Below are positions 1 through 59,787 of a stretch of DNA of 64,000 nt, one piece after another (within the stretch, counting starts at the first letter, position 1; each line of letters begins with the position of its first letter). The notes under the pieces were generated by a model. The model ran no database searches and was not told the origin of the DNA. It saw nothing but the letters and a program-made list of their open reading frames with translations. The translations under genes and the position numbers were made by a program. This DNA is from Tubulanus polymorphus (taxonomy: Eukaryota; Animalia; Nemertea). The DNA lies in NCBI RefSeq assembly GCF_964204645.1, contig NC_134030.1:13306957-13370956 (forward strand). Direction: 5' to 3'.

Positions 1-59
1 ATAATGAACAATACGTTGGGTCTTTAATAAGATGTTAAAGAATAATAGAATTCAAATAC

Positions 60-14128: not shown

Positions 14129-14134
14129 AATAAG

Positions 14135-20919: not shown

Positions 20920-22329
20920 GATCGAACATGTACCATGATTTTAACGCAAAGCCTAAGTCAGAGAACATTATATCTAAAAACACATTTGTTTGTGGTTTAT
21001 GTTAGTTGTATTTCCCGCCAAATAGCTGTTGCCGACCAACTCGGAACAGTTTCAATTTTCCCTGGTTTTTAATTTCGGAGTTTTATATTTTAAATGGAGT
21101 TTTGTTTATAGGATATAACAAATATTTTGGACAAATACAAATAGTTACATCAATATTAATAAGTGAAAATATTCTAAAGATCTGTAGAAGGATAAAAAAT
21201 GGCTAATTCGTAAACAAAATCCATTCCTATATCTCATTGCCGTTCAATCACAGCGCTTATAATTTCTAAGAAATCTCATATATTATTAATTTACTTATGC
21301 AAGATACTGTAAATAATTCCTTTAATGCGTAGTAGTTGTATCGAATTTAAAGTTGTAGGTAATACAACAAATATAACAAGCGCTATGTGTATAGTGATTG
21401 ACGTCATCCTTCCTAGCAGTGTTACACTGCTGTACTATTTTTAGCATACGTCACAAATCTTTTACTGAAACCTAAAATCTACGCCCACCATTAATGATAT
21501 GAATAAACATATGACGGAAAACGATGGCTAACATATCAACCAAATAGCAGAGTATATGGTCATCTTCAAGTAGTTATTCCATTTTACAAAAATGTGTATA
21601 CATGATATAGGTCAGTCGGTTTTTGGTACCCAAAAATCGTAAAAGTTGACCTAGCAGACCAAATAGACAGACCCAAGCTATAACCATATACTTTTCAGTT
21701 AGATACTAACCTATAGTAAGCCATGTTAATATTCATGTATGCAAGTTTTTAGTGGTGGGCGTGGATTTTGTCGATTCTATTCGGATTTATAGGTAAAGTA
21801 ATTAGCAAATTACGAGAAAAGTAGTGGGCTAATCCGAAATTTTATTTCACAGTTCTCTTCAGCACATGTTGACCTTTCGTATTGGCACTGGTTTTTTAAA
21901 CAAATTATAATTCATAGTAGAACAAATTTAACATTAATCTCCCTAGAATAACAACACATCGAATAGGCTGTACTGCAGCGTGCAGCATTAACTGATTTGT
22001 GTAGATGATTGCCCAAATTTACATGATTCAAAAGTGAGAGAAAGTGAGTTATGTTATCTAGCTTTCTCTGGGAGACATTTTGGGATAACAACATGGGTTT
22101 TAAATCAAAAATATAAGTCAATTGTTAAAGACTTTAGGGAGAATATAAGATTTCTAGTTTTATTTTATAACAAAGATAGAAAATCTATGCAACAATCATT
22201 GGAAGAAAATCAAATTATACCTACTGAATTACATGATGAATATATGAATAAATTAAAGAATAATAAAAGTTCAAAATTATTACTGAGGCTTCAATTTCCT
22301 TATGAATATAAATTTATAAAATAACTATT

Positions 22330-23460
22330 TATATATCTATGTACGAGATGTACGAGTAAGAAACCAAGATTCTTGCAAAGAAAGTAAGATTTCTTGGATT
22401 CTTGGATTCTTACTCGTACGTCTAGTACATAGATATATAAATTATTAAATGAAATATATAATAATGAATAAATCATATATTAAAACATGTTTATAATTTA
22501 TGTTTACAGAGGGGTACAAATACACAGATTCTTGCCAGGAAAGTAAGAAAGTAAGAATTCTTGGATTCTTACTCGTACCTCTCGTACATAGATAAATAAA
22601 TAGTTTTGTAATAATTAAAAATATAAAAATGAATAAATTATATGTTTTCACTTGATAAAAATAAAAAATAGATTATATTATAACTATTTCTGTACTTAGA
22701 TTAATAATTTACATTTTTAATTTAAAAAAAAAAAATTATATATGTATGTACGAGAGGTACGAGTAAGAATCCAAGAATTCTTGGATTCTTGGATTCCTAC
22801 TCGTACCTCTAGTACCTGTCTTACTTTCTTGGATTCTTAGATTCTCACGTACGTCTAGTACATAGATATATATAATAGTTTTATAATAATTATTCTAATT
22901 TTGTCTCTAATACATTTATAAAATCATCTTTGTTTATATCTAATTCACCATAAGTCTTAGGTAGATTTATTAATTCTAGTCGAGCCATCTTTAAACGATA
23001 ATTAGAAGGTATATTAACTTCTTTTCTTAATTTTTCAAAGTATTCATCAAAATCATCATAATAAAAATCAAAACTATGTACGAGACGTACGAGTAAGAAA
23101 CCAAGATTCTTGCCAGGAAAGTAAGAAAGTAAGAATTCTTGGATTCTTACTCGTACCTCTCGTACATAGATAAATAAATAGTTTTGTAATAATTAAAAAT
23201 ATAAAAATGAATAAATTATATGTTTTCACTTGATAAAAATAAAAAAATAGATTATATTTTAACTATTTCTGTACTTAGATTAATAATTTACATTTTTAAT
23301 TAAAAAAAAAAAAATTTATATATGTATGTACGAGTGGTACGAGTAAGAATCCAAGAATTCTTGGATTCATGGATTCTTACTCGTACCTCTAGTACCTGTC
23401 TTACTTTCTTGGATTCTTAGATTCTCACGTACGTCTAGTACATAGATATATATAATAGTT
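22330..23460. repeat. Central array of imperfect palindromes (GTACGAG-TAAGAATCCAAG-AATT-CTTGGATTCTTA-CTCGTAC), including a ~578-bp tandem duplication
   Basis: Units at ~22331, 22500, 22745, 23074 and 23325; 22526-23072 is duplicated at 23104-23665; lies where the + and - gene blocks converge. Confidence 0.9.
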
Positions 23461-23503
23461 TTATAATAATTATTCTAATTTTGTCTCTAATACATTTATA
23501 AAA

Positions 23504-24634
23504 TCATCTTTGTTTAATATCTAATTCACCATAAGTCTTAGGTAGATTTATTAATTCTAGTATTAATTCTAGTCGAGCCATCTTTAAACGATAATTAGAA
23601 GGTATATTAGCTTCTTTTCTTAATTTTTCAAAGTATTCATCAAAATCATCATAATAAAAATCAAAATGATTTCTAAAATTATTTATCAGATAACTTAAAT
23701 CTATTTTTCTAAAATATAATAATTTATATATTTGTTCAGGATTATCTTCTGCATAAGCTAATAATTTATCAAATAACAACTTATAGAATATATAATATTG
23801 GTTAGTTTTAGGATTAAAATATTTGATATATTTCTTTGGGTTATTTAACAATGGTATCATACTCACCATTTTATAAACATTAATTAGATGTAATTTTGAT
23901 TTATAATGAGTATTTTCATCAACAGATTCAATTTTCTTATTACAATATTGACACGTTTTATTTCTTTCTTTTTCTTCTTATTTCTTTTCATGTTCTTCTA
24001 ACTCCCTTTCATTTTCTATATGCGCTTGAGATTTTTTATGTTTAGAAAAATTACTTTTAGAAATATCTAACTTACAAAGGTTACAATGTTTTTTAGAATC
24101 ATCAATTATTTCATTATCTGTTATATCATTATAATTAGTTTCAATTGGGTTAACATTATTTATTACATTATCTGTTATATTATCAATGGTATCATTAGTT
24201 TGAATTGTATTAACATTATTTATTAAATTATCTATTATATTACTATCTGATATATTATTATAATTATTTTCTTTTTCTACACGTTTCTTTGATTTCTTAT
24301 GTGATGCCCACTTTTTATATGATATATATTTCTTATTTACGTCACAATATTTTTCATTTGTCTTTTTGGTTTTGATATCAGGTTCAATCTTATCATCATT
24401 CGATGTAGAAGGTATAACATTATCTTCTATTTTTGTTTCAATATTATTATCTATTTTAGATTCAATATTATCTTCTATTTTTGTTTCAATATTATTATCT
24501 ATTTTACTTATTCTATATTTGAATTGATTAAAGTATTCTCCAAAATACTTACTGTATTCATCATAAGGTATTATATAATATATGTCTGATATCATTTCAC
24601 TTGGACTTTGTATTTCATATATTCCTCCTTCCAT
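23504..24634 (-). pseudogene. Polinton multi-zinc-finger protein, disrupted (two ORF-track pieces of one gene)
   Basis: HCNLCKLDISKSNFSKHKKSQAH; after a stop and frameshift TCQYCNKKIESVDENTHYKSKLH leads into the 23869-23504 ORF. Confidence 0.65.
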
Positions 24635-25896
24635 TTATTATATAAATTTTTATTAAAATTAAAATTCTAATACATACCACTATTTAATTGAGAATTTACA
24701 ATATTTAATTGCGCGTCAGATATAATATAAATGTGCATTTTGAAATTTTTGATTCCTTTCTACTTTTTCATGAATAATTGTATTCCATCTTTTGTATTTC
24801 GTAATTTTTTTTCCAGAACCATGTAATGAATTATCCTCTTTTGTTCTGGAATCTAACCATAATGCATATTTATTGCCGGTATGATAATCAATTTGATTAA
24901 TATTACAATTTTCAGATGATTTTACTTTTTCATTCATAAAATGTTTTCTAATTTCTGGCCACTGATCTATCATTCTCATTCCTTGGCAAAATATCTTATT
25001 TGCTATACCTTCGATAGTTATTTCTTCTTTTGTTATTTCAGGATTATAATACTTATCAACCTGTATTGCACCATTAGAGTATGTTGCAATTGTGAAAAAT
25101 ATTAATATACCTTTAATAGATCTTCTTGGGAAGTTAATATTCTCATTAATTATTTTATCACTTGCATTAATAGTTACAGTTTTAAATTTATCAATATAAT
25201 CATATAATAATGAAAATCCTTGATTGTATTGAGTTTGAATTGTGTTAGCAATATTTTCATCAGTTAATGTATCATATTCTAAACTTATATTCGATAATTT
25301 ATAACCCATATCTTTGACAACGCTAGATAATACAATTTCATTTACAGGAGCAAATGTTATCTCAAATATAACATCTTCTTGAATTGCATATTTATACAAA
25401 GGTGCATTATTATTTATAAATTCAAAGTCTAATGGAATTTTACATTTGCTTCCATATATCCTTTTTATCAAACTATCTACGTCATTGGCTACTACTGCAT
25501 TATTGGCTTCAGATCTTAATTTATTTTGGTTTTCTGATTGGATGCCTTGAAATATCATATTATTTCTATTTTCTTTAGTTAACCATAAATCTTTATAATG
25601 CATAAATAAATTATAATCATCTAATGAGAAAACTGTTTCTGGACCAATCTTTATAGTTAATTTTTTAATCAAATATCTTCCAACATTATCAACAACATAA
25701 TTATTATTATCACCAGTTACTTTTATATCGGCTGATAAATAAATGCTTTTTGGACATAAAAAGTATTTTGTGTTAATCTAGGGATTCTAACATATAAAGT
25801 TTCATCGGGATTAATATTAGAAGGGTTATGAGTTATTATATGATGTGATCTTCTGCTTTAATGGCATTAGATATTCTATGATTCTTAGAAGTACTT

Positions 25897-28800
25897 AATA
25901 ATAATAAATTTATTTCCACAATAAAATTACAACATGTCATAAAGAGATATACAAATATGAAATGTTTTAATATAATGTGGAGGAGATTAGATGAAGCCAA
26001 TGAAGGCTTATAAGATCTCTAATCCCCTAGCATACACCGATTCACTCAACTCATACACACATGCAGTCATACACCTTCACCCAACATGCACCCACACACG
26101 TAGTCACTCAGGCGGTCAATAACACTATCTTTCATTCACTCTTACAATCTGGTAATAGATGACAGATACAGACAGATTAATTACAAATTTATTAGATACA
26201 ATTTAAGTTTTCTTTTGAAAGTATCTATACACGACAGTTGTTTTAAACTTTTTGGCAAATTATTCCAGACAACAGGACCAGAAATTTTTACTGTGAATTG
26301 TGTTTTGTTAGTCCGAAATCTGGCAACACGAAAAGAATTTATATTTCTGGTTGAATACGAGTGTATATCAACATTCTTTTTGAAATCCCGATTAAAGGAA
26401 TTTGGCAATTTTGAATTATTGAATTTGAACATAAATAGACTTAATTGAAATTTTGTAATATGTCTAAATTTTAGGATGTTCAATTTCCTGAAGATAGGGT
26501 CAGTGTGTTCTAGGAAATGAGACTTATTAACTATTCTTACTGCTCTTTTTTGTAGTAAAATTAGTGGATTAAGCTTGTTTGCATAATTACTTCCCCAGAT
26601 TAAATTACAATATTGTAAATGAGGATAAACAAAACTATAATAAAGGGTAATAAGGATATTTGATGGGAAATGCTTTTTTAATCTGGTTAAAATTCCAATG
26701 GAGCGTGACACTTTACTGCAGACATATTTGATATGGACATCCCAATTTAATTTGTCATCTATAAAAAGACCAAGAAAATTCGTACTATGTACACGTTTGA
26801 TTAATTCTCCATTTAACCAAATGGAAGAATTAAAGTGATCTACACGACCAAAAATCATAAAGTGGCATTTCGCAATATTTATTGAAAGTTTGTTTACTTG
26901 ATACCAGATGCCAAGTTTCGCCAGTTCAGAATTTACTATGGAAACCAATTCTTTGATTAGAGTTACTATAAAAACAATTCGTGTCTTCGGCAAAGAGGAT
27001 AAAATGGAGTAATTTGGACGCATTAACGCAATCGTTAACGTATAATAAAAAGAGCAAAGGGCCTAGAATAGAACCCTGGGGTACACCAATTGATATATTT
27101 AATGGCGACGATAAGGTATTGTTGAAACTTAAAACTTGACTCCTGTCAGTCAGGTAGCTTTTAAACCAATCATGAGGAACACCTCGGATTCCGTAATAAT
27201 CAAGCTTCATCAACAAAATGTCGGTGTCGAATGCCTTAGACAGGTCCAAGAATAATCCAATAGTAATATTCTTATTTTCCAAGGCTTCAGAAAGATTATC
27301 AACAACCTTGGTTAATGCCAAATCTGTTGAATGTTTTGAACGAAAGCCAAACTGGTCGGGGATTTCAATATCCTGTTTGTTACAAAAGGAAACCAATCTG
27401 TTGTAAACTAGTTTTTCCAGAATTTTTGAGAAGCTAGGAAACAAAGATATGGGTCGATAATTATTTAAAGAATTAGGGGCTCCGGATTTAAACAAGGGAC
27501 AAACTTTCGCAATTTTGAGTTCATTGGGAACTATTCCAGTCTGAAGACTACGGTTAAAGATATAGGATAAAGGGAACTTAATGATATCAATCACCTGTTT
27601 TATAACAAAAATACTCAAACCATCGACACCGGCACTCTTCTTTAAGGGGACACCCGAGACCACATCACTTATTTCATGAGGTGAAGTCGGAAAGAGAAAT
27701 AGACTTTCATTGACACGTTTATTCATATATTGATGAAAGGATTGCCCTGTATCAGGGATTTGAGTAGCAAGCCTTTCACCAATATTTGCAAAAAAATTTT
27801 TTAACTCGTTGGCGATGTTTATATTACCAGAAATAACACGTTGATCAGAAGTAAAAGAATTAGGCATTTTAGAATAAATGTTTCTACCTAAAACTGTGTT
27901 CAACAGTTTCCACTTTTCTTTCATATCATTTCCAGCAGCGAGCAATTTTTCAGAATAATAATTAGATTCGGCTTTGTTAATAAGCTTTGAAATGAGATTT
28001 TTGTACAAGTTGTATTTTGATTTCATTTTTTCTGAACGTGTTCTAATAAATTTCCTATAAAGGTTGTTTTTTGTTTTAATTGCTGCGATAATACCAGGAG
28101 TTATCCATGGTTTATAGAATGAGGGATTAATATGATTAACTGGTACCAGAGGGAAAACTTGATTGAAAACTAAAGAAACTTTTTCAATGAAAGTAGTGTA
28201 AGCAACTGAGGGATTATCAGATGAATACACTTCACTCCAGTTAATATTCATTAGTAATCTGTTGAAATTAGAAATATTGCGCTGCGAGAAAATTCAAGTT
28301 TTAAAAGGTTGTCTGTCAGACAGAGGCTGATCACCACTGCAGATAGTAAATATTGGGTAATGATCCGAAAGGTCGGTCATAAAAATCCCAGATTTGTGAA
28401 CATGTCGCAAATCGTTACAAAAAATATTGTCAATTAAGGATGTCGAGTCACAAGTTACTCGAGTTGGCTTGTCAATCAAAGGTGAAACAGACTGAGAAAA
28501 TAAAGATTCGAGAAATATTTCAGTATCTTTGTGCGTATCATATTTCATGAGATCTATATTAAAGTCCCCCACCAGGCAGCAAAGTTTGTTCTCGCGAGTA
28601 ATTTCTGCCGTTAAAACTTCAAATTCATCTTGAAAAGTTGGTAATTTTCCAGGTCTATATATTACTCCAATAATAATATTGGATTTTTTATCTAAAACAA
28701 TTTCGATGAATAAAGATTCGAAAGTATGATTCCTAGTTGATAAGTCTGTCCGTACTTTGAAATTGAAATTTTCCTTTAGGAAGAGAGCTACGCCGCCACC

Positions 28801-29440
28801 AAGTTGACCATTGGCGCGGGATTTAAAAATACTCCGTTAATTCTATACAAATTGGAGTTAGAATTATTTGAATTAGTCCAAGTCTCGGTCAAACCAATGA
28901 CCGAAAATTGACCATTACAACAATTCAAAAAATCAGTTAAACTGTCAAAATTTTTGTTGACACTTCTGATGTTATGAGAAATGATGGATAGAATTCCCCG
29001 TTCAAGAGGAGAATCCTCGTCAACATTAAAGTACAAACAACTGTTGTTTGTAGAAGGTATATCAGTTACTGAGCTTTTCATACAAATAACAAGTCATGGT
29101 GTTTGACTAATATTCCTGGTTTTTTCTATTGAAGGTGGTATTCCGGATAGTGATCTCTCCTTTCGTTTTGCCGAGGTCGGTGTGCAGAAAGCATCACTAG
29201 TGACGCCATCTATTGCCCCGCAAAAGTGTTTAAGCAATGCAAGCTTGCCGGTTTCACTGAGGTGAATACCACTTTGATCGGTCGGCGAATAAAAGTGGTC
29301 CAAAGCTTTACCAGACGGTTTAAGTTTCAATATAGTGTCATTATCAATAAACATGATATTCTGTTCCGCGCATAGTTTCCCGATATGGTTGTTAACTGCT
29401 CTTGCAAGGCTGTTGTACTCTTTTACGTTGTTGGAGTTAT
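25897..29440 (-). mobile_element. CR1/L2-group non-LTR retrotransposon, 5'-truncated within ORF1, inserted in the MCP gene
   Basis: ORF1 SGNH-like remnant (FIDND...SGIHLSETG); APE motifs (HNIRS, GLTETW, GDFNID, SDHYPI); RT motifs (NYRPISL, DLSKAFD, GVPQGSILGP, FAED); AATAAA plus (TTA)n tail. Confidence 0.93.
26181..29081 (-). pseudogene. LINE ORF2 (endonuclease plus reverse transcriptase), frameshifted
   Basis: Four ORF-track fragments with colinear EN and RT motifs. Confidence 0.92.
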
Positions 29441-29473
29441 ATAACTCCCACTCATTTATTTAACAAAAAAATT

Positions 29474-31185
29474 AATTATTTATTTTTTATCATATTCACT
29501 AATCCAAAAATAATTGCAGTTACAATGTAATTATAAATAAAATAATATGTTCAGCAGCAAAGTTAAGAATATTCCCTGCAGATTTCAATATACAACCAAC
29601 AATCGATGCAATAACTCCAGGTAATGCTGCAGGAGATTTTTTAGATAGTTCCCATAAATATTTTGCTAATTTCTTTAAACCATCCTTAACTTTATCTTGT
29701 ATAAAATTATTATCATTCGGGGGTTTATCCGGTTTATTGGGAGTAGGAGTAGATTTCAGTGAATTTGATATAGCTAAACCTATTGTTGTAAATACCATAG
29801 TTACAGCTGTTAGAATTGAAAGAATTGTGATTCCTTCTAATTTAAATAATAATTTTATTCTGTCTTTCAATGATATTTTAGAATCTGGTTTTATTATTAA
29901 ATCTTTAAAAATAACTTTTAATTTTTTAATATGATTAAGATCATATGATTTTAATAATATATCTCTTTCTTTTTCCTGAAATCCTTTGTTATATTTTAAA
30001 TCAACTATTTCTTTTTCTACAGCTAACTTTCTGCTTTCATAATAAGCTTCCTCTATTACTTGAAGATCTCTATTTAATTCTAATTGTTTTAATTCTTCAT
30101 TTGCATTAGTTATTTCTTTTTCTAACATGGTTATTTTAGAAAATCTCATCTTAATATTAGCAATTTCACCAGCTGATTCCTGCATACCTTTAATTTCTCT
30201 ACGTGCTGGTTCGGGAAATGCTTCTAATTCATCATCAGTTAAATCAAATAATCCTTTTTCTAGTAAAGATTGTATTCGATTTATTCCATTCATCAGTTCT
30301 TCTGTATCACTTAATCTATCAATTTGTTCTTCTAATACTATTTGTAATTGACTTGAATCATTATCAATTTGTTGAATATCTCTTCTCGATGTTTCGAGTG
30401 TTGAAGATCTTAATCTATCTAATCGATCTGCAAAATCTTCATATGTTTCTGGATCAACAAAAATAGGATTTTGATTTGGATTTTTAAATGGTGAATATTT
30501 GTTTATATCAATATTAGGAATTGGTTCTTCTTCATTTATTCTATCGATTGCATTCCATACAATTCTGAGAAATTCTCTACCACCTTTTGAACCTTCAATT
30601 GTAGATCTTGCTCGCATTCCAGGTTCAAAAATATTTTCTTGACCCATTCTAGATAATTGTATTGATTCAGTTTTACCATTTAATTCAAGATTATAATACC
30701 ACGCATCATTTTTAAATTCTAAATTATTCATGAAATATGGATCATCTTTTTTAATTTGTTCTACAACACCTTCTATATCAATTTCATATATTACTTCTTT
30801 TGGTAATAATTCGTTAACAATTGTATCTGTTACTCTAGTTTTCATTAAATATAATTCTTCTTTCAATTCAGGGTTTTCTGTTCTTTCTAATCTATTAATT
30901 AAATATTTTCTTTCTAGTCTAGTTTTAATAACCCCCCTTTCGGAAGCTGTCATATATTCTTCAAATTTTTGCGTGTTTCAATATCATCTTTATATTCATC
31001 ATAATCATATAATATTGGCCCACTAGAATCATCTTCACTTAAATTAGTATTATATGCTGATGAATCATCATCATTATTATTAGATTCAGTATCATTATTA
31101 TTATCATTATTATTATTATCATTATTATTATCATTATTATATTTCCCATGTCTTCCATTGGAATATCTACTCTACCTTCTGCCAT
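29474..31185 (-). pseudogene. Polinton coiled-coil/membrane protein (MAEG start, Asn-rich N-terminus; includes the 477-aa ORF 29520-30953)
   Basis: Heptad-rich middle region; hydrophobic GITILSILTAVTMVFTTIGLAI and C-terminal segments; frameshift in an ATT-repeat. Confidence 0.7.
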
Positions 31186-31201
31186 TTACATAATAAAAAA
31201 A

Positions 31202-32572
31202 TTAAAATTTAAAATATAATATTCCTCCGATTACAATTCCTATACAAGTTATAGCTAATTTAGCATTTTCATGGGATTTATTATCATTATCAGTTTTAAT
31301 TATTTCATGTTGAATGTCTCCGTGTGGGTGCCATACGGCACCATTATTAGTTTTTATATCACCGTGTGGGTGCCGTACGGCACCATTTTCTGATGTATTA
31401 TAATCCGGTTTAGAATCATTGTTTAATTTAATATTCTTAGTTATAGTTTCTGTTGATTGAATATGTTTTTTATTTTTTTCACCTTCCATTAATTTTGGAG
31501 CAGTGATAATCTTTTTATTTATATCATTTAATCCAAATGAATTATATATTGTTGCAGTTTTAATTAGATTATTATAACCAATTATATTTCCCATCTTTAA
31601 TACTAAATCATTAGAAATAATTAATAGATTAGGGCCTATATAATAATTTAATCTAATATGTGATTTATCTAAATAATTCTGATATCTTACAATGTTTTCT
31701 GGAATCGATCTATTTTTATCATTATGAATTGAATCTTCAAATAATACTTTGAATTGTTTCTGCGCATCAAATGAAGTGTTATCATTTCCAACTATTGGGG
31801 ATCTTGTTTCAACTTGCGCACCTAAAATACATATCAAATAAGTTCTAATAGATTGATTTATTCTTTGTATTCCAGCTTTAGTAAAACCTTCCCTATTTTC
31901 TAAAATGAAATTAATCCATCCATTATTATTTTGTTGTTGTATATTATTATAATATTTTGGTAATTCATTCCAATTTAGTGTTCTTATATCTGAATTTGTT
32001 ATTATTTCTCCAAATTCTTTAGTATATAATATTCCTAATCCACCCATTGTACCAATTTTTGCTCTAAAATCATTATTTGAATTAATATTAAATTCATTAC
32101 ATATTTTATAAAACTTAGAAAAATTAATATTATTATTTAGTTCATTAAAATATTTTGAACCTGGTAAAGGACATTCTAATTCATTCAATATTAATTTTAT
32201 TTGAAAATATGTATAAAATCCAAAAAGTGATAACATCAATGGTAAACTTGGTTTGTTTAAATGATCATTCCAACTTATTCCACACCCTGTTGTTGCACAA
32301 TAAACTGCAAAATTTGATTGGTTCTGCCAATACTTCATATTAGATTTTAATAACCATTGTTTTGCTTCATTAAAATCTTTAAAATTAATTGTATACACAT
32401 GAAATATATTTTCCACCTTAACATTAAAATTATTAGTTTCAGTAACATAAATATCTGAATTAATTAATGAATTTAAAACTTCATTTCTATATGAAATATC
32501 TTTATTAAAATCTATTGCAGGAATATTATATTTAATTGATTTATTGTATTGGAACGCTTTTGGAAACCCCAT
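31202..32572 (-). CDS. Conserved Polinton hypothetical protein, C-terminal TM, probable virion component
   Basis: Intact 456 aa; WQNQ.NFAVYCATTGCGIS motif typical of this element group; C-terminal LAITCIGIVIGGILYF. Confidence 0.75.
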   Translation of the reverse strand: MGFPKAFQYNKSIKYNIPAIDFNKDISYRNEVLNSLINSDIYVTETNNFNVKVENIFHVYTINFKDFNEAKQWLLKSNMKYWQNQSNFAVYCATTGCGISWNDHLNKPSLPLMLSLFGFYTYFQIKLILNELECPLPGSKYFNELNNNINFSKFYKICNEFNINSNNDFRAKIGTMGGLGILYTKEFGEIITNSDIRTLNWNELPKYYNNIQQQNNNGWINFILENREGFTKAGIQRINQSIRTYLICILGAQVETRSPIVGNDNTSFDAQKQFKVLFEDSIHNDKNRSIPENIVRYQNYLDKSHIRLNYYIGPNLLIISNDLVLKMGNIIGYNNLIKTATIYNSFGLNDINKKIITAPKLMEGEKNKKHIQSTETITKNIKLNNDSKPDYNTSENGAVRHPHGDIKTNNGAVWHPHGDIQHEIIKTDNDNKSHENAKLAITCIGIVIGGILYFKF

Positions 32573-32588
32573 TTATATAATTAAAAAA

Positions 32589-32783
32589 TTAATAATTAAC
32601 TAATTCTTTTAATAATTTATCTCGTTCTTCAACTGTTATATGGCCATTTAAACTTATTATATAATCTCGTGTGTTTTTTAATTTATTAATTTCTTTTATA
32701 TTAGTTTTAATTTTTTCTTTATTTCTTTTTATATTTAATTTTGAACTTATACCAGTTAAAACACTTGAACTTAAACCTAGCAC
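32589..32783 (-). CDS. Small Polinton ORF fragment
   Basis: 64 aa, amphipathic then basic; start uncertain. Confidence 0.4.
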   Translation of the reverse strand: MLGLSSSVLTGISSKLNIKRNKEKIKTNIKEINKLKNTRDYIISLNGHITVEERDKLLKELVNY

Positions 32784-33114
32784 CTAATCTGATAATTTAG
32801 GTATATATTGATGTAAATTTTCTTTATTTGCTACCGCGTTATATAAACTCATTGCATCATCAACTGATTGAAAATCTCTATGTGAAATCTTCTGATCATA
32901 TAATTCCTTGTTAATATAATCCATATAGTTTTGTCTCTTTTTTCTGTATTCTTCTGCAGCTTTATTGTATTTCTCTAATGCTAAGTTATGTCTTTTTTGT
33001 TCTGATAATGAACCATTTTTATCAATATGCTTAAATAAATAAATAACCACCACCAGTAAATGCTAAAGCGTTAACAATTGCCGATCCTATAATAGTTATA
33101 ACTGCAGAAGCCAT
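32784..33114 (-). pseudogene. Small Polinton protein (hydrophobic N-terminus plus coiled coil), frameshifted
   Basis: MASAVITIIGSAIVNALAFTGGGYLF / KHIDK...EQKRHNLALEKY. Confidence 0.7.
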
Positions 33115-33141
33115 TTATTTAGCAAAGAAATTATGCACTTC

Positions 33142-33352
33142 TTATATAGCAGGAATATATTTTTGTTTTTCCAAATGATCAATAGTTAAATTAGATAAAG
33201 TAACTGCTAATGTTAATTTTAGAATATCATTTATATCAAATCTATCAACATTAACACTTCCCATTTTAAATACTTTTTTTAATACCATTGAATAACCAAC
33301 AGTTCCATCTGATAGTGAGGCTCCATTATATAATCCAGTTATTATCACTCAT
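33142..33352 (-). pseudogene. Small hydrophobic Polinton protein
   Basis: TAAATG at 33352, frameshift, then VGYSMVLKKVFKM...LEKQKYIP. Confidence 0.6.
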
Positions 33353-33407
33353 TTATTTATCAAACAATTACTATCTTCAAAATATTTAGTTATCTAAGTT
33401 ATCTTAG

Positions 33408-33719
33408 TTAATTAGTTATCTTAGTTATGATTATTTCAACATTTATTTCATTACTACTTTTATGATTATCATATATTTTAGATAATATGTTTTTAATATC
33501 ATCAATAATTTCATCTTCATTTAATTCATAATATTCTAAAGGTGTTTTAATTAAATCAATTACTTTTTCTACATTATAATTTTCTTTATTAATCATTGAT
33601 GCATTGTTAAATGATTTACTTTTTATATCAGTAATTACATCATTAAGTTTAATTCTCATTTCTTTACCATGTTTAAAATCAAACCCAAAACATATACTCG
33701 GTTCAACAGTTATATTCAT
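33408..33719 (-). CDS. Polinton hypothetical protein (103 aa)
   Basis: Intact ORF preceded by T7-N7-TAAATG. Confidence 0.6.
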   Translation of the reverse strand: MNITVEPSICFGFDFKHGKEMRIKLNDVITDIKSKSFNNASMINKENYNVEKVIDLIKTPLEYYELNEDEIIDDIKNILSKIYDNHKSSNEINVEIIITKITN

Positions 33720-33736
33720 TTATATAGTGAAAAAAA

Positions 33737-34493
33737 TTACTCTCTACATCTTATAACTAATTCATATATCACAGGGAAATTATTTAAATCAATTAAATAT
33801 CCATTATGATTTCTAATTTCTAATATAAAATTATTAAATTGAGGAATGCTTGGTTTGAAATCACATTCTGTTAAATTATAATTTATTTGCGTTCCAAATT
33901 CTTTAACATTCTTCAATGGTAAAATGTTTAATAAACCAGAATTACAAGTTATATCTTTAGTTGCTTCGAATGCTTTTGTAGGATCAATTAAATTGCAATA
34001 AATATAAAAATGCGTGTAAGGTATTAAGTTTGGTGTAGCAGCATCAATATTTTAAAAGATCTATCTGGAAAAATTCCTAACAGTTTAGCTATAGGTTTTT
34101 TTACCATAAATTTATGTTTTTCAATATTAGACAACCTTATCTTTATTCTATCAGAACTATCACTTTTTAAAAACCTAATACTAAACCCGGAATTACTACC
34201 TAACTTATGCCAGGCTTCCCTATTAATTTCTTGTGCTAATGTAAATTATATAAACCTGGTTTTAAATATATATAAGCCCATTCATTTTTATTTTTATCAA
34301 AAATCAAAAAGGCTCTATGTTCAATAGTTTTATTCGATATATTGTAAAAAGAATTACATAAACTTATATTTACTAATTTTAAAACAACACAATTCTTAAA
34401 TTCTCAATCTAATTGTACTAGTAAATAATGTGATTTATAATTTGTAAGTCTTCTTGAATCAACAAATATTCTGTATTCTTTTAATTCTACCAT
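33737..34493 (-). pseudogene. Minor capsid protein (penton, single jelly-roll), missed by the ORF track
   Basis: Manual translation: MVELKEYRIFVDSRR...NSFYNIS...LKPGLYN...HFYIYCNLID...ILEIRNHNGYLIDLNNFPVIYELVI; contains a stop and frameshifts. Confidence 0.8.
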
Positions 34494-34505
34494 TTATTTT
34501 ACATT

Positions 34506-34859
34506 TTATTCGAAATCTATTTCATGGTGCCCTTTTTCATTCTTACCTTTGTATATGAAATAGAAATCTCCATAACATAATTCTTCTAAATCTTCACTTG
34601 ATAATCTATGAAATCTATCTGGTAAATATGTTCTGAATTTATATTTATTTCCTTTTAATCCTTCATATTCTAAGTGGATAACTAATTTACTACCATATCT
34701 ATTAGTAACTGTATCAATATTTGTAATTAGATATTTCTTATGGATTGTTAATTCTTTTAACTTCTTAAACTTATAATCTACTGATTTGACATTTGAAGTA
34801 TCTTTTATTCTATCTAGAAATGATTTGTTGTTCTCACTGTGTGCTTGTTTACTCTCCAT
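34506..34859 (-). CDS. Conserved small Polinton protein, possible OB-fold/ssDNA-binding
   Basis: Intact 117 aa; FKKLKEL..KKYLI...NRYGSKLVI...YLPDRF; beta-strand-like pattern; adjacent to pPolB. Confidence 0.6.
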   Translation of the reverse strand: MESKQAHSENNKSFLDRIKDTSNVKSVDYKFKKLKELTIHKKYLITNIDTVTNRYGSKLVIHLEYEGLKGNKYKFRTYLPDRFHRLSSEDLEELCYGDFYFIYKGKNEKGHHEIDFE

Positions 34860-34930
34860 TTATTATACATATTTTTATTAAAATTTGATTAACACGCTAG
34901 AATCCTTTTCATTCTTTCCTTCTCTTTTGT

Positions 34931-37900
34931 TTATTCTCTTTTAAATTTTAAGTATTCATCTAAATTGCAACCATAAGCAACTGTGTGTATACCATCATCT
35001 AAAATATATATCTTATCATCAAATGGGTTTAGACTTATCTTCTCTATCTCTTCAATAAATATTTCATGATCTTCAGATCTTAAACATCTCATCTTATGTT
35101 TTCTAACTTCTTCATTGAATATACAATTGATGTAATCTTTTAAATGAATATTCTTTTCTACTACACTTTTGGTTATTCCTTTTAACTTTTTAGCTTCATG
35201 TTCTTTAGTTTTATATGAATACATTTTAGATCGAATACCAATGAACTCTATCATTTCTTCAACACCTAATTCATCCTTAAACTTCCCGGGAGCTTTTTTA
35301 TTATCATTGCTAAACAATTCATGGTCTTTAGGATAGTTACTGAAATCAAAATGATGTTTTAATGTTTTTAAATCATCTGTTATGTTATTAGTTTTTATCT
35401 TTAATATGTAACTGTCAGTATCAAAATATAAGATTTCTAGGTTGTAATACATTATAATAGAATTCTTACATTAATAACTTTGATAATTCTAAAACTGTAG
35501 CTCCAACATAAATTGGTTTATTAAATTTCATAGAAGTTCTCCTCATTTTAACTGCAGCTAAATTTTCATCAAATATTCTGTTACCCATAAATTTAGGATA
35601 TGTTTGTAAATGTCTAATTCTCTTACCATTACTAACTAACTCAATATCATTTCTATTTCTAATATTTTCACAAGTTTTTCCATAGAATGCATTATTCATT
35701 AACTTGAAGAAATCTTTCTCGAAATCAGTTTTAGCTTTAGTTCTGTTTGGTGTTAAAATCTATATATTTTCTAACCATTTAGATTGACTAAATGAAATAT
35801 ATCTATGTACTTTTTTAAGGATCATTCCTTGTTTTAGATAAAACATTAACATTCTATAATGTACTACATAATTATATTTATCTTCTTGAGTTACCATTAA
35901 CTTTTCTGTACGAATATGATTTTCGGGTTTCATTCTTTTTTGATAATTTGATAATTCTTCATGCGTTACAGTTTTATGTTCTGGACAGTATGCTAGATTT
36001 CTAGATTTAAATTCAATATGTTCGGGATATTCCAAGTCTACAACAAAGAAGTAACCAGTATCTGAATCATCTGCAATATCTAGGATTCTTTTCTTTCAAT
36101 CAAATTTATCATTATTTTCATGTTGTAAAACTTCATTTATTTCAAATACTCCATATGGTTGTGGTTCAATCATTGCCCAACCATATAGATTATTTGCATC
36201 TATATATAATAATTTATATCCAGGATTATCATTTACATTGAAATATCTATCACCTAATACACCTGAAACTCCTCCTCTTATAGATTTTTCAAATAATAAT
36301 AATTGATCTATATTTGTTAACAAATTTTTATATCTGTAAATTTTAAACCACAATCCCAAGTTAATCCTGGTGATGAATAACAATGGCATGGATCAATATT
36401 AAAATATTTTAGATTTACATCTCTAAACCTTTCGAATATATCCGATAATAATAATACATCAGATTTTAAATATAAATCTACTAACTGTCCATGATTTGTT
36501 ATTTTAAAATGAATCCAAATATTCAAAGTTCTATTATAGACTTCATCTTTAACATATTCATTTTTTGATTCATCATAAAATTGTTCTTTTAATAATTCAG
36601 TTATGTTAAAATCATTATGTGATTTATAAAATGAATATGGAATTGCGCCTTTATATCTCATTAATTGAAAATCATCATTATTTGGATAGTGTTGTTTTAA
36701 TATTCTTAATTCATCATCAACTAATGATTTTGATAAGTTATCTAATGAACTACCTAAAAATCTATATGAATCTATAAATCTTAGACACCCAAATTGGAAT
36801 GATATATAATTCTCAGATGTTTTAGCTAACATTTTAAATTTATAAGTTGGTATTTTATTTTTTAATCTATTTGAATTTAATCTTTCTATTTCATGACATA
36901 GCTGTTTGATACATAAATGTGCGTCATATCCTGATAAACTATGAAATATTGCTGGAACAAAGTTATTTTTCTTAGCTTGTAAGTTACAATTCTCATGCGC
37001 CGCGCCTCTAAACTTTCCATTCAAATGATCATGGTCTCTTACTTTTTTATATTTATAATTAAATATTATGATTCACAATAATAACATTTATCTGCAAACT
37101 CAAATGCTTAATGATTCACAATAATAACATTTATCTATATTTTATTATTTATATGCAATAATGATTCACAATAATAACATTTATCTGCAAACGCAAATGC
37201 TTCTTTATCTTCTTCTGTCATTATAATTTCTATATTTGTATCTAATAGTTAACTAAATTTTATTTCATACTCGATTTATAAGTCACAAAAATGATTGATA
37301 ACATTTTCATTTCTGTAATGATTATACTCACTTTTAATTAGTTCTGGATAATCAGATTTAATATATAATCCAAAAGCTGCAGCTGATTGATGAATCTTTT
37401 TAATAGTATTTGTTATTAGGGGATCTGAATAATCAATTATGTCATTTTCATTAGAATTAAATTTCTCTCTTTTATGATAAATTTCTTTTCTATCTTGATC
37501 AGTTAATTCTTTATCTAATGATTCAAAATCTCCATATATAACAAATGGTACTTTATTCTTGTAATCATATTTTTTGAATTCTAATATTTTATCCTTTTCA
37601 TTTGGTAAAACTAATTTACAATAATCATGATTATCACATAATTGTTTATGATTTAATAATGTACTTTCATTACTGAATCTATGTAAACATTTTCTACATA
37701 GATATATTTTATGGTGATCATTTTCTGATTTAAAAAATAAATCGATTTGTTTTTTCCACATATAATGATTTTCATTATATAGTATATCTATAACATCATT
37801 TGAATCATAATCTTTTGATAGGTTTAAAAAAAGGTTCTAATGTATAATGTTTTATATTGTTACCTTTTGTTTTTGGTAATTTGAGTAAATCAAACACATT

Positions 37901-38866
37901 TATCTTTATATTATTATCTCTTTCTATTTTTGGAATATTTTAAATTCTAACTGGGTTATTATCTATCTTTTAATTATTTTCAAATGGTTTATAATTTGTT
38001 AATCTAAAACTATGTGTAATATCTTCTGTTGGATGTAAGCAACTAATTATTGTCCATAGAAAACATTTATCATCAAAATTTTGTACATTTATTACAGCAT
38101 TAGTTTTAAATGGTAATTTGATATAACTTGATCCATTTATACTATCATCTTTATAATATGATAAATTATTTTCATCAATTGGTTTTGATTTAGTCAACTT
38201 ATTATATTTTGTGTTATAAACATGTAAAGTCATAAATATTATTTCATCAAATATTAAACCAGATTCTTCAAAATATTTCTCTTCAATTTTAGTTTTTACA
38301 TCATTATAACATTTATCTAATTTATCATCTATATGTTGTTTTGAAATAATATGTTGTGAATGAGAATTTATATTATATATTGGTTTATCTTCAGATTTTA
38401 TAAATTTAACTTTAGAAGATATACTAATTTTAGGGTGTTCAACATCTGTGATTATTTTTATAATATTTTTCATATTTTCTAAATGTTTTTTATTTTCTTC
38501 TAATGTTTTTCCTATATGAAATTTCAACTCGATAACAGCTATTCTTTTAATTGTCTTCTGTTTCTTATCATTATCTTTATCAAAATAATCCTCACCTAAA
38601 ATATCATTATTCTTATTTCTAATATGATTTTTAGATTTTAAATGTTCTTTATAATATCTTTTATCACTGAATGATTGATTACACGTATTACATTTATATA
38701 TTTCTTTTTCATTCTTTAATTCATCTAATTTAGTTTATAATATATCATCTTTATATTTTAACTTTAATTTATTCTCTAAATGTGTTTTAGTTTTATTGTG
38801 TCTTGCTTTTTGAGATTTATCTATATTGATTTTACATGTTGAACAGTAGTACTTATTTGCTTCCAT
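34931..38866 (-). pseudogene. Protein-primed family-B DNA polymerase with N-terminal zinc fingers and an endonuclease-VII-like insert, fragmented
   Basis: YGDFES (Exo I), FHSLSGYD (Exo II), YLKSDV (Exo III), YIDANNLYGWAM (motif A), KLMNNAFYGK (motif B), YFDTDS (motif C), RDHDHLNGKFRGAAHENCN. Confidence 0.96.
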
Positions 38867-38908
38867 TTTAATACTAAATTTTTTTATTAAAATTGATTTT
38901 AAAAGTTA

Positions 38909-38960
<52 letters not shown>

Positions 38961-39123
38961 TATTTTAAGAGTAATAGGGGAAATGGGCTTTTTCATATCA
39001 AAGGTTAAAAGGGCGGGCGAGTAAAAAATGAAAAATAAATTCGAGCGTGCGAGAATTTATTTATCATTTTTTATGAGCTCGACCTTTCGACCTTTGGTAT
39101 GAAAGCCCATTTTCCCTATTACT
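38864..39123 (-). repeat. Right TIR of Polinton copy 1, including (TA)n and a 154-bp terminal hairpin (38970-39123)
   Basis: Read outside-in it aligns with 54521-54745 up to ATGGA; arms are self-complementary around loop TCGCACGCTC. Confidence 0.9.
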
Positions 39124-41025
39124 AACCAAATTTTACATTGGTAGTTCACTCTGATATAATGATAATCCAATGCGTCTCTGGTTGGTGGTAGCGAGCAAAG
39201 GTTTTTGGCCTTATTTTCATATAATGAAACACGAGCTTCCTCTACAGCTGAAAATTGTGTGTCATACATTTTACAGACAAACTCTTCAACTTTTTCAAAA
39301 CTTCTGGATGCTTAACGTAAATATCCCAAGCAGTTTTTTTGCCAATGCCCCGAGAAAGAACTAGTTGTGTCACATCCAGTTATCGCATGCCATCCTAAAA
39401 TATTGTTTAAAACGTTTTCCCTTAGACTGTCCCTGATTTTACTGATGTCGTACACCTTTTTACCACTAATCATCAAAACAGTAGCATCGATGTCTGCTGT
39501 GAAACAAACAGCAGCAGCAGCACGTCTGTGTCGTCAGCAACAATGACTACTCGAGTTGCACCTGAAAAGTTAACAAAAATTGTAATTAGATTACAATAAT
39601 AAAGTGTTTTGCCAATACTTTTGTGGATTTTGAAACAGCAAAATGGATTATAATGCTTACCTGTATCTACTGCATGCTGCATGTGATAAATTATGCGGGT
39701 GTCAGCCTCCTCGTGATGGCATTCCAGATGCGGCAAAACCCCAGATGTAGTTGAAGTAGGAACAGTCCCACCACCACTGACTAATATCTCTATACCACTG
39801 TGTACTTTCACCACAAAGTTGCTGAGAAATGTTACGAGGTCTGATTTGTTTTCTTCTAGTGTGATGAATGCTTTCCAGTCCTGAAATTACATTTGAATTA
39901 TCATAATCTATCATGTTATTAATAACTGCCAATGGTCAAACTGATGTTTAAACATATTATTCCGTTTTTATAATAAGAATTTCTGAAAAATAACTTAACA
40001 AACCTTTGGGAAAGGCGTGTCGTGGTTGATTAGTTTCCTCACTCCAGGTGTTTTCGATCTTTTTGGCGAGTTTGAAGTTTAATTGAATTACTTCCATTGT
40101 AACAGTCAAAGACAACGTCTATTCTGGATGTGTCATCAAGTTTCTTGGAACATGCCCGAAATATTGATATAACAACCAAGAATCAATATCATAATAAAAT
40201 AACAATACAAATCCAAAATTAAAGGTTATAAGAAATTGGAAATTGAATCTGTGGGTAATTTATCATTATTACCTTCTCAAAGAATATTCTTCCATAGTCA
40301 TTGTTACCAATTGTATTTGATTGTTTTAATTTCGTAAATTAAGTAATTTTGTCTTAAATTGTTTCCCGTATGGTGCTGCCACCTTCTGGGATTACTTTCC
40401 TTCCCAGGCATGCGAGGGAGAGAATTCAAGCTCAGTGATTGGCTGAGACTTCTTTGTTGTTGTTGTTCATCCAAAATGGTGGGGAAATCATAAGATGGGT
40501 CAGGCATTTTGTATGTAATAAATCTAATTTTGTAGCCTATCGAGATGGCTCGAGTGTGCCTTGATAATGTATTTAAGTTAAACTATGTATAGATCAGGCA
40601 CAGCAGCATTGAGTTGGTGAAATTGTATACACACGACCGAAGTTTTATGGACTTTGAATTATAGGCAGATGTTGTCCTTGTCTGACCTTGAATACGATTC
40701 TGTTACTGATATGAAACTGTCACCGTGATTGATAATGTTCGCTTGAATCTGCGACATTTTCCAGCACCATACCTGAAGAGGATCCACCTATTGTATTGTA
40801 TATATTAAACAGTTGAAAATGACCCATAATTGCAACCGTTAGCAGTTAATGTTTGTCATTGACTCGATCTTGTTGTAGTAAGGTTTTTGTAGTTAATCGA
40901 CCTTACAATAACTGACTTGTTATATTTGGACGAAGATGTATGTGCGGTAGCGTGTCCCGACGTATCGCCGCCGAGGAAAAGGTGTTAATGCTGTCGACGA
41001 ATCGCGATAAACTGTATATACTGTT

Positions 41026-41097
41026 TTCCGAATCCTGTCGAGCGTTATTCCGAATCCTGTCGAGCGTTATTCCGTATCCTGTCGAGCGTTATTCCGT
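41026..41097. repeat. 22-bp tandem repeat x3 inside an unclassified ~1.2-kb insertion (~40170-41413) in Academ
   Basis: TTCCGAATCCTGTCGAGCGTTA repeated. Confidence 0.85.
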
Positions 41098-44000
41098 TAA
41101 TTGTCGTCGTTAGAATTCATCGCCCTAGATGTTATGTAAGCTAATGGCAATGCGTGCGAATTGCGAATAGTTGCGAATAATTGCGACTGCAGACGTGCAG
41201 TGAAGTTACTCTACTGTGCCTATTAATTTTTGCATAGTATTAAATTTATGTTTGGCATATAATTGTAATTCCATCAGTGAGCTAACTGTTGTTTTCCTTT
41301 GAGTAACATCAATAAAGTTATTTAGTTTTATATTTTTAATCCAAATTGTTTTGTTTCCTTCATAAGGACAGGTTAGACGGGTTTTTCCTACAATTGGCCC
41401 TTAACGAATTGTTTCAGTCATTGAAGGATTTGCATGATGAATTTGCTGGACTCCCAAGTTTTTGTATAAGTGCAAAACCGTCTACAATGATGATCGATTT
41501 CTCTGATTTTGTACTCTCCAGTTTACTTCTATCAGATACATCAATACCAGCATTTTTACCAAGAATTTCGAGAATTTTGCTTTTGGCTGTTTGACGCATC
41601 TCTCCTTTTGTAGTCACTATGGCTTGTGGGTATTCTGCCAACGCATGATTTGATATAAAATTCATGTCTATATCACGTCCAGCCTGCGTAGCCACTAGAA
41701 CCTTTTGGAAGAATTTAGCAGTGCTGTCATTAGCGGCTGGTTTTACTTTCTTTGACTGAACGACTTCATCTTTGTAAACATCGGGAAACCTCTTTGCTTT
41801 CTCTTTGGTGATCGGATCAAAGAACTGTTGGATTTGTCCAGAAATCTACTTTGGATTATACCGTCCAACTTATTTTCGCCTTTCTGGTGAGCATTAACCA
41901 AGTCATTCGTAATTGGACTTGTCGCTACATCATTGCTTATCACAGATCGAATTAATCCACCAGGAGCACTTTGAAAAACCTGAAAATAACAAAATGGATT
42001 TTTTTATCAATATAATTTCAGAAAACCTTTAGGAATGATCAATTAAAATAATGATGACATTTTTGATATATTAATGACTTACATTGTGATTTATCAGAAG
42101 TGTAGTCAGATTTTGAATTTCTGTAACATCAGTATTAATTCTGCTGGGAAGCATGTCTTTTCGTCCTGATATGACAGGACCTTCAACTTCAGTATCTTCG
42201 ATGCCCAGTAGAACTATGGTCTGCTGCATGGCATTAGCAGCTGCTGCCCATGTTATACAGAATCTGTTTCTGGTTTTCTCGTCAAGGGAAATACCAATGA
42301 TACCATTAGCCATCTTACACGTTCTATTGATCCATTCCGTTGCCTGGTCAAAACTGACTTGATTAAACTTGTTGCTCGTTCTTGCAACAAAGTTACCCCT
42401 GATAAATTCCCTGTAATTCAAATGGATAACATGGTAAGCTTTTATGATAATCATGACACTGTCTGTTACATATTAGCAGATATTCACAAATAAAAATAAA
42501 CCCGTGTCAAATCATTTTGCATTAGTACAGTACGGTAATTTCGATTTACCAGCCAAATAGAGCTGAATATTGATGAACTTTCTAAATTACAAAAATATTT
42601 TTTTCAAACGGCATTGTACCTCAAGATATCAGGTGCAGTGTTCTCCAAGTCAGTCATCTGTACCAGGTACACTGGTCCCCAACGACTATAGTGGACATGG
42701 TCGTACCTAACCATCAATGGTAGCATTTTAGCAAAACTTTCTAAATGAAGTGACCAGTTCCCGTCTCTCGTCGCTCCGATGAAATCAAGCATCACTCCAA
42801 CCATATTTATATAATCAAGCCATAACTTGTAATTATTTGAGTGTTCACTTTGGACATCATCGAATATTTGCAGTAGATGGCTGAACTTTGCATCCCTCAA
42901 TCGATCTGCGAGTAACTTCATTTTGTCTAAAAGATGAATAGCGTAGTGGAATTGAGCTGAAAATATCAGAATAAAATAAATTCCCAATTAAATATACACT
43001 GCTCAATGCCGACCAGTGATATATTGCCAAGTCTTAACATTGGAGCTATTCAAGCCTGGGTAATTAGCTTAGACTATAATTAGTAATATGTTTGAATTTG
43101 CTTGCTCACTGTGGAATAACAAAAATTGAATAATAAAATATAAGATGATAAGGTCTTCATACTAAATTACACTTACATACGGTGAGTCTTCAATCTTGAT
43201 AGATTCAATGAGACCTTGAACAGCACATATTATATTGCATTGGTTTGCTTTGTCTTTAATCCAGGTAACGAACGTTTCCAACCTAATTTTATTCACAGCT
43301 TCAAAGACAAGTTGATGGCCTCTCACTGCTCTATAATATGCCTTCCCCTCTAACATTGCAGTGACACTGTGACTGGCAAATAATCCGGACTTTGTCCATA
43401 AGTCTTCTAGTCCTGCCCCTGCCATGTGTTGTCCTATGACCTTAAGAAAGTTAAAGAGTATATGAAGGTGACCAAGCATCAAAATTACGTGTTTGTACTG
43501 TGGGTTTTCTGACACAATTTCCTGGGCCAGACTGTAGAGTGGTTGATCGGCACACATAACAGTGTATTTCTGATTTAGTTGTTTCGAGCACTCCATAAAC
43601 CTGTTTAGTACTTTTATCAATGTATCTCTGTTTTGAGACTGCGCATTTAGAATAGGTAGGATACCAACATTAGTTTTTTCTTGCAGTACCGGTTGTTGAT
43701 CACAGATTTCAAAGAATGGGGCCCACATCGGCACAACATTTTGATCATCCAATATCCTACTCATCAACCATATGTCGGTCGCTTGGCGAAATTTATTGCA
43801 TACATCTGATGTTTGGAGCATTTTACTGAGTACATTAGCATTAACTGTAGGGCTGGACCTCTCAGCTGAAAAAAACACCATTCACGATTTTACCTATGAA
43901 CTGAAAGCAACAGTTTTTAAAATCAATACCCATTTATGTTTCCCTATCAGGGCTACCACCATCATCTAATAATAAAATGCTGAGGGGCAACTTAGTTTAG

Positions 44001-49659: not shown

Positions 49660-50160
<501 letters not shown>

Positions 50161-56670: not shown

Positions 56671-56751
<81 letters not shown>

Positions 56752-59781: not shown

Positions 59782-59787
59782 AATAAG

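Follow-up and report, generated by a model that had tools for sequence, protein, structure and literature searches.

A conserved TAAATG gene-start signal in a Polinton/Maverick of the nemertean Tubulanus polymorphus and its relatives, with a predicted poxvirus-type promoter function

A 64,000-nucleotide (nt) stretch of the Tubulanus polymorphus genome (NC_134030.1, positions 13,306,957 to 13,370,956; from this point on, the window) contains, at 13159-38866, one degraded Polinton/Maverick, a dead copy with a gene set of protein-primed type B DNA polymerase (pPolB), integrase, A32 ATPase and double jelly-roll capsid. Nearly all genes of this element begin at TAAATG, that is, with TAA directly ahead of the start codon. 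The signal is real and conserved, as judged by comparison with related elements, and a function as promoter is predicted for it. In the element DNA (18.7 kb, 24% GC), TAA precedes the ATG at 15 of 18 mapped gene starts, compared to 45 of 748 other ATGs, while the strict form T5-N6-9-TAAATG occurs at six of the 18 starts and at three of the 748 others; the 18 include three genes counted a second time from another copy, and four starts (31185, 24634, 38866 and 54741) were assigned by eye. When TAAATG sites alone are considered, the strict T-run form is found at 6/15 gene starts and 3/45 other sites. Across the whole window, T5-N6-9-TAAATG is matched ten times (nine sites, six of them at gene starts) against 2.26 +/- 1.82 in shuffled sequence, and none of 100 shuffles reaches ten. 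Among the 15 TAAATG starts, a T is found 9 nt upstream in 14 and 10 nt upstream in eight. A weight matrix for the 16 nt upstream, built from distant relatives only, scores 14 window starts higher than 94 other TAAATG sites (p 2e-6) and higher than the 43 such sites inside the element (p 1e-5). The two ATPase starts rank low by this matrix, and both sit in integrase coding DNA.

The initial annotation of this DNA quoted seven upstream sequences, on the minus strand at 29455, 31185, 32572, 33114, 33352 and 33719 and on the plus strand at ORF (open reading frame) A (13159 and 58860). All are present in the window as written, and the sites prove to be genuine gene starts from alignments to relatives, with added support from reads at 29455 and with 31185 placed by eye. 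The major capsid gene begins at T7-N6-TAAATG (29453-29471, minus strand, start 29455), a position at which the capsid genes of four relatives also begin in the alignment. A long interspersed nuclear element (LINE) starts about 22 nt past 29455, and because 358 reads from copies elsewhere part from the window at 29433 and run into capsid-like sequence, the LINE is taken to interrupt the capsid gene there. Next on the same strand, a coiled-coil/membrane gene has T7-N6-TAAATG (31183-31201), its start set by eye from N-terminal likeness to the relative L010; a conserved 456-amino-acid (aa) gene has T6-N7-TAAATG (32570-32588) and aligns from residue 5 of intact relatives; a small amphipathic-peptide gene has TTTCTTT-N6-TAAATG (33112-33130) and aligns from residue 1; a membrane gene of about 75 aa has TTGTTT-N6-TAAATG (33350-33367) and aligns from residue 6; and a 103-aa gene has T7-N7-TAAATG (33717-33736), again aligning from residue 1. 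The T6-7 spacer described for this structural block is thus seen in four of its six genes, with broken runs at 33114 and 33352. An upstream stop codon abutting the T-run, said to occur in four genes, is certain for three (31185, 32572 and 33719, with spacers of 16, 16 and 17 nt to the ATG) and blurred by frameshifts in the fourth.

The motif had been presented as a trait of the structural block, but it turns out to be element-wide, since 34493, 34859, 24634, 13760, 15215, 59425 and 60837 are also TAAATG starts, with A-richer upstream sequence. On the minus strand these include a family-10 gene of about 250 aa with an A-rich upstream region (34491-34496), which the earlier list lacked, and two starts of a second upstream class, TTTTAATAAAAA...TAAATG, at a 117-aa gene (34857-34882) and at a zinc-finger-like gene behind the capsid gene (24632-24660, start by eye). 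For the 117-aa protein there is a weak lead to single-strand DNA binding, from a match to the phi29 single-strand binding protein in Atlas (score 0.83, 44% of members). On the plus strand, ORF A of the first copy has T6-N8-TAAATG (13142-13161, start 13159), ORF B has TAAATG within the last codons of ORF A (13757-13762, start 13760), and the A32-type ATPase has TAAATG within the last codons of the integrase (15212-15217, start 15215). ORF A of a second copy has T5-N8-TAAATG (58844-58862), and its ORF B (59425) and ATPase (60837) likewise start with TAAATG. The exceptions among the window starts still have TAAA directly ahead of the ATG: the likely pPolB start, assigned by inspection, reads TTTTAATAAAAAAA...TAAA|ATG (38864-38892, minus strand, start 38866), the HNH-like gene at 54741 also has TAAA|ATG, and the integrase of the second copy (59788) has TAAAATAAG|ATG.

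To compare related elements, an alignment of the capsid protein (26 of 69 sequences) was used to recover 80 metagenome loci, and the first ATG of full-length core genes was scored; 19 of the 80 had no scorable core gene, leaving 61, and ten near-duplicates were removed. In the clade of the window's element, as defined by a quick capsid tree (Shimodaira-Hasegawa-like approximate likelihood ratio support 99), TAA precedes the ATG at 35 of 40 core genes from 11 loci with GC contents of 0.20-0.44. The other 40 loci, sorted post hoc, are bimodal per element, with TAA|ATG at 15/16 starts in eight loci and 0/155 in 32 loci; AT-rich Mavericks of other clades (16 loci, GC 0.39 or less) have it at none of 44 starts. 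Accessory genes of the clade, such as the kinase and HNH-like genes, likewise start with TAAATG. The signal is kept across capsids that are 47-69% identical and across GC contents of 20-44%, which shows that it is under selection. The check proposed earlier, of gene starts against internal ATGs, is void in frame, where TAA is a stop codon; out of frame, TAAATG in the relatives' coding DNA occurs at chance (37 vs 36.8 expected).

The signal changes state four times on a FastTree phylogeny, with at least three changes forced. In sister Mavericks (L015, L017, L021, L026 and L044), 19/29 genes carry a T-run and then TATA(G) no more than 16 nt from the ATG, as opposed to 1/29 further upstream; this is closer to the late initiator of African swine fever virus than to the poxvirus one. 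Another related group has TAAA(A)ATG in 13/14 (control 2/14), and a GC-rich group shows little signal, with TATA at 12/79 and TAAA at 11/79 (controls 5 and 15). A scan of genome contigs returned two distant loci with TAA at 0/10 ORFs, and no capsid or ATPase relatives were found in scans of viral contigs. A close relative carries a deoxynucleoside kinase gene that begins at TAAATG (L001:10343-10981, minus strand, PF01712, E 2e-31) and is not present in the window copy; as a clue to the helper through its donor, the kinase yielded only four relatives at E 1e-20.

Among the relatives' 50 TAAATG starts, the base upstream of TAAAT is T in 84% at a distance of 9 nt and in 74% at 10 nt, and is A in 58-68% at 13-15 nt; the ATPase and family-25 genes show fewer upstream T, although numbers are small. 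Vaccinia late promoters have been described with TAAAT, which typically runs into the start codon with a following G, and with a T conserved at the tenth nucleotide upstream (PMC11980589), and vaccinia intermediate promoters with TAAA, no conserved T and an AT-rich stretch at 15-19 nt (PMC11980589; PMC5294985). As far as sequence goes, the proposed match of the window's signal to the vaccinia late promoter finds support for the starts with upstream T, which place TAAAT+G on the start codon and T centred 9-10 nt upstream; the long T6-7 run, however, is a trait of the AT-rich subclade rather than of the whole group. The starts of pPolB, 34859 and 24634 combine TTTTAATAAAAA upstream with TAAA(A)TG; placing them in an intermediate-like class is suggestive only. 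Both features, the TAAAT+G on the start codon with a T-rich core about 10 nt upstream and the occurrence of some genes with TAAA and A-rich upstream sequence, are thus common to the window and vaccinia. The differences are that the signal here, a predicted promoter, belongs to an integrating element of 16 kb in which no polymerase was recognised, that it has an extra A peak at 13-15 nt, and that nearly all genes of the element carry it, with no clear early class.

The base at -3 is T in TAAATG starts, whereas it is A in 86% of the 44 starts of other AT-rich Mavericks. A T at -3 is a poor context for translation under the Kozak rule, and for this reason fits an mRNA that begins inside the AAA. 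AATAAA occurs in the coding DNA of the clade 139 times against 143.6 expected, showing no avoidance, and in other AT-rich Mavericks 64 times against 79.8, a slight avoidance. T5NT, the poxvirus early stop signal, was considered as a discriminator and rejected, being depleted in the coding DNA of both groups (19 vs 34.9 and 21 vs 34.2) and hence not diagnostic. Viral loci holding the motif once (n=154, the second scan having taken in 2 of 64 parts) have TAA|ATG at 62/576 ORFs, and only three loci, L097, L093 and L168, reach half of their ORFs. One of these is L097, from Melanoplus sanguinipes entomopoxvirus, with TAAATG at 4/5 ORFs, a positive control of five ORFs only. The 6.3-kb viral contig L093 (26% GC) has TAAATG at 3/3 ORFs in positions 1-3494, with no known families; it may come from a virus that shares this style of promoter. 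A search with its 499-aa protein, also made as a clue to the helper, matches only itself, and no structure match was found.

We lean, though not strongly, to the reading that the signal is a poxvirus-type post-replicative promoter, for which a co-infecting virus of poxvirus type would supply the polymerase, and that the element is provirophage-like. Pfam scans of the window and of ORFs from its relatives recognised no RNA polymerase, no capping enzyme and no late factor; the relatives are partial contigs with several conserved ORFs unnamed. The polymerase would most simply be borrowed, because nearly all genes start at an initiator of cytoplasmic-virus type and the element has no recognised polymerase of its own. 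Sharing of late promoters with helpers has been described for virophages (PMC6428243). On this model, the element would integrate by means of its own integrase and stay silent until infection by a helper, when its DNA would reach the cytoplasmic factory. Late factors would then dock on the T-rich core, which lies some 10 nt upstream, and transcription would begin in the AAA and slip, giving a non-templated poly(A) leader that runs into the AUG, so that the T at -3 would lie outside the mRNA; capping and polyadenylation would be left to the helper. Poly(A) leaders are described as arising by slippage at the initiator, of which yeast linear plasmids carry a TAAAN version (PMC6211774). Adaptation to an outside machine would fit the distribution of the signal, because its state is all-or-none per element, has changed at least three times on the tree and gives way to TATA in sister lineages. 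As a more tentative extension, possible rather than probable, Beta-type animal Mavericks at large might be provirophages whose start signals name the class of helper, TAAATG pointing to an undescribed poxvirus lineage and TATA to an asfarvirus-like one, with all promoters of an element switching together at a change of helper.

Several points weigh against a poxvirus-type helper. No helper virus was found. Beyond the A32 ATPase common to Mavericks, Pfam recognises no poxvirus genes in the window, the element included. Initiators of TAAA type also occur outside the poxviruses, as illustrated by the TAAAN of yeast linear plasmids and the TAAAT described for the ranavirus DNA polymerase gene (PMC5294985), and giant-virus contigs L093 (3/3) and L168 (3/6) also use TAAATG. 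The A peak at 13-15 nt, due in part to upstream stops, is absent from the description of vaccinia late promoters, and the strict T5-N6-9 form is found in only 16/56 of the relatives' genes. Short divergent gaps also occur in motif-free Mavericks (in L067 the first ATGs are 12 nt apart), and compactness is therefore not specific. One of the changes on the tree is that of L013, a decayed and miscalled locus; the eight positive and 32 negative loci outside the clade were grouped after the data had been seen, and genes within a locus are not independent. In Amoebidium, 32% of endogenous adintovirus genes, capsid genes excepted, are described as switched on by demethylation alone (PMC11244446).

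The helper might instead come from another group of large DNA viruses, whether asfarvirus-, egovirus- or iridovirus-like or undescribed, with a late initiator that converged on TAAAT(G). We think this unlikely. TAAA and TATA initiators with a T-rich core are common to pox- and asfarviruses, L093 and L168 are themselves giant-virus contigs, the related Mavericks form a graded series from TAAATG through TAAA(A)ATG to TATA, and poxviruses of marine invertebrates had no match in a literature search. Set against this, TAAAT+G placed exactly on the start codon with a T at about -10 is the documented form of the poxvirus late promoter, and the late genes of African swine fever virus (ASFV) are described with a TATA initiator (PMC7163114). 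The sole named virus recovered with locus-wide use of the signal is an entomopoxvirus, and polinton-like viruses associated with entomopoxviruses are described (PMC11296320).

A quite unlikely alternative dispenses with a helper altogether. Host RNA polymerase II in the nucleus, perhaps with an unrecognised factor from the element, would use compact, near-leaderless promoters in which TAAATG is the element's own initiator or a relic, and the likeness to poxviruses would reflect convergence or ancestry. Endogenous adintovirus genes can switch on with no helper, as described in PMC11244446, compact starts are general in Mavericks, and the family has reached high copy number in its host (depth mostly 400-700 in 1934 Mb). 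A private factor is also conceivable, given a 456-aa protein with no fold match and an ORF A with no sequence match. The distance from TATA to the transcription start is 25-30 nt in polymerase II promoters, and the TATA within 16 nt of the ATG in the sister Mavericks would place that start inside the coding sequence. A T at -3 would be a poor translation context unless the mRNA began after it, a single conserved host polymerase hardly accounts for sister lineages that switch between TAAATG and TATA across the whole element, and AATAAA is not avoided in the coding DNA of the clade.

It is very improbable that TAAATG is a translation device, either for stop-start coupling on a polycistronic RNA or as an in-frame stop guarding the N-terminus. 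Among the relatives' 50 starts, the TAA is the upstream gene's stop in five and another four overlap the upstream gene, as coupling would have it, but 25 have a gap and nine are divergent starts, where that strand carries no gene upstream; for the remaining seven, no upstream gene is in view. Eight of the nine divergent starts sit 15-30 nt from the partner ATG. Moreover, TAA stands ahead of the ATG at 50/56 starts and TAG or TGA at 0/56, yet TAG or TGA end 14 of 49 genes, and four of the six exceptions retain TAAA 2-3 nt ahead of the ATG. The T peak would also be left unexplained, and the gaps, the divergent starts and the failure of TAG or TGA ever to replace TAA largely refute coupling. That the signal is a mere by-product of AT richness, as the 24% GC of the element and its 45 other TAAATG sites might suggest, is hardly credible and is refuted by the enrichment at the element's own gene starts, by its absence from 44 starts in Mavericks of GC 0.26-0.39, by its retention at GC 0.36-0.44 (L006 3/3, L007 2/3, L008 2/3) and by the background in this upstream DNA, where 7% of trinucleotides are TAA.

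The element lies in repeat-rich eukaryotic DNA with LINE reverse transcriptases, and its gene order is the same in the intact relatives L001, L002 and L004. On the plus strand, 13159-22324 holds ORF A, ORF B, an rve integrase with a chromodomain and the A32-type ATPase. These converge on the minus-strand genes: pPolB, another eight genes, then the genes for the major capsid protein and the zinc-finger-like protein. Fragmented pPolB (34931-38866, minus strand) matches PF03175 above the cut-off (E 9e-7) and, by tblastn, L064 and the length of the L080 pPolB. The integrase fragment matches PF00665 below the cut-off (E 1.5e-6), an intact relative does so above it, and identity to relatives is 65-85%. 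Both halves of the A32/FtsK packaging ATPase match PF04665 below the cut-off, and an intact relative does so at E 5e-11. Two large insertions, at about 15545-21991, where the ATPase gene is split, and at 39060-47330, have fragmented ORFs and no Pfam match; they are probably decayed host DNA transposons.

The major capsid gene (24670-29455, minus strand) is broken by the LINE (about 25900-29432) and by frameshifts. Its modelled product (predicted local distance difference test score, pLDDT, 80.5) has a double jelly-roll fold matching the capsids of the chlorella virus PBCV-1 and iridovirus (E 3e-11), with no PDB match by sequence, and it groups with Maverick-type proteins at 28-70% identity. 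Membership in Virophaviricetes was rejected, as the capsid is not of virophage type: those of mavirus and Sputnik fall far below that of PBCV-1 in the fold search, at 9-10% identity. The eight decayed genes between capsid and pPolB (29520-34859, minus strand) are syntenic with L001. Of these, the 456-aa protein (31202-32572, minus strand) is conserved in Mavericks; its model is partly confident (pLDDT 71.5), with no fold match in PDB or BFVD and no match in Atlas. The coiled-coil/membrane and amphipathic-peptide genes may resemble the GasderminX and Cupiennin genes of Beta-type modules. Candidates for a maturation protease or a minor capsid protein gave no Pfam or PDB match. Same-species reads cover the block at a depth mostly of 400-700 in 1934 Mb, mostly at 90-95% identity, and the host must therefore hold many copies of the family. 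No 6-bp target duplication was located around the element.

The convergent gap between the ATPase and the last minus-strand gene (22325-23503) contains tandem, inverted and palindromic repeats, with a 580-nt duplication; L002, L004 and L005 hold unrelated palindromic repeats at the same place, and the gap is possibly a terminator or origin. A second, partial copy, identified by sequence comparison, lies at 54690-60962 on the plus strand and has the HNH-like gene (54741-55440), ORF A, ORF B, the integrase and the ATPase start. Regions 38860-39125 and 54520-54745, candidates for terminal inverted repeats, are homologous, and each lies ahead of the first genes of its copy. Within them are near-perfect 150-nt hairpins (38970-39125 and 54521-54672, z -15) in homologous places, and the reads suggest that this hairpin part is a separate, high-copy foldback family. 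Each hairpin arm has an A-rich motif that we take to resemble the vaccinia early consensus; its candidacy as an early promoter was set aside, as it sits about 120-200 nt from the ATG and the reads point to that separate family. Between the two copies is a host homeobox exon (49663-50160, minus strand, PF00046, E 2e-24). Elsewhere in the window, long inverted repeats (94-97%) at 4674-5174 and 11238-11825, with internal tandem units of 73 nt, enclose about 6 kb in what appears to be a transposon-like element.

In gene content, the element shares pPolB, rve integrase, A32/FtsK ATPase and double jelly-roll capsid with the Beta-type adintovirus Polintons/Mavericks described by Starrett et al. (PMC8502044). 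It differs in that most Mavericks sampled here have no motif (0/155 starts, 32 loci) and in that no adenain protease was recognised in the element. Sputnik and mavirus, as described in PMC6428243, are likewise small, integrase-bearing DNA viruses with no polymerase of their own and with gene starts that match the late promoter of a large virus; they have virophage capsids, protist hosts, Imitervirales helpers and a dependence shown experimentally, whereas here the capsid is that of a Maverick, the host is likely an animal and the motif is of poxvirus type. The polinton-like viruses associated with entomopoxviruses are also proposed hyperparasites of poxviruses in animals, but they are described with highly divergent capsids and other replication genes and were inferred from occlusion bodies (Barth et al., PMC11296320). 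The yeast cytoplasmic linear plasmids pGKL1/2 are protein-primed linear elements with a TAAAN initiator and poly(A) leaders formed by slippage; unlike the present element, they are described as encoding their own polymerase and capping enzyme and as having no capsid or integrase (PMC6211774).

A search of the full-text literature, with most subscription journals outside its scope, found no description of poxvirus-type promoters in animal Mavericks. The words 'promoter', 'TAAAT' and 'motif' have no occurrence in the main text of PMC11296320, nor has 'promoter' in the main texts of PMC8502044, 10.1101/2024.03.23.586382, 10.64898/2026.10.13.758929 and 10.64898/2026.06.19.733378, and the available passages of PMC10328495 and 10.64898/2026.07.28.741278 discuss shared promoters for virophages only. 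Given a precise, clade-wide start signal of poxvirus type, a poxvirus-like virus is to be expected in hosts that yielded none here. If the reading is true, the virophage strategy would extend from protists to integrated elements of animals, and a sequence-based rule would let helpers be guessed with nothing but genomes to go on. On the more tentative extension to Beta-type animal Mavericks at large, endogenous copies would preserve a fossil record of large DNA viruses that have yet to be found in these animals, and might be an antiviral reserve against them.

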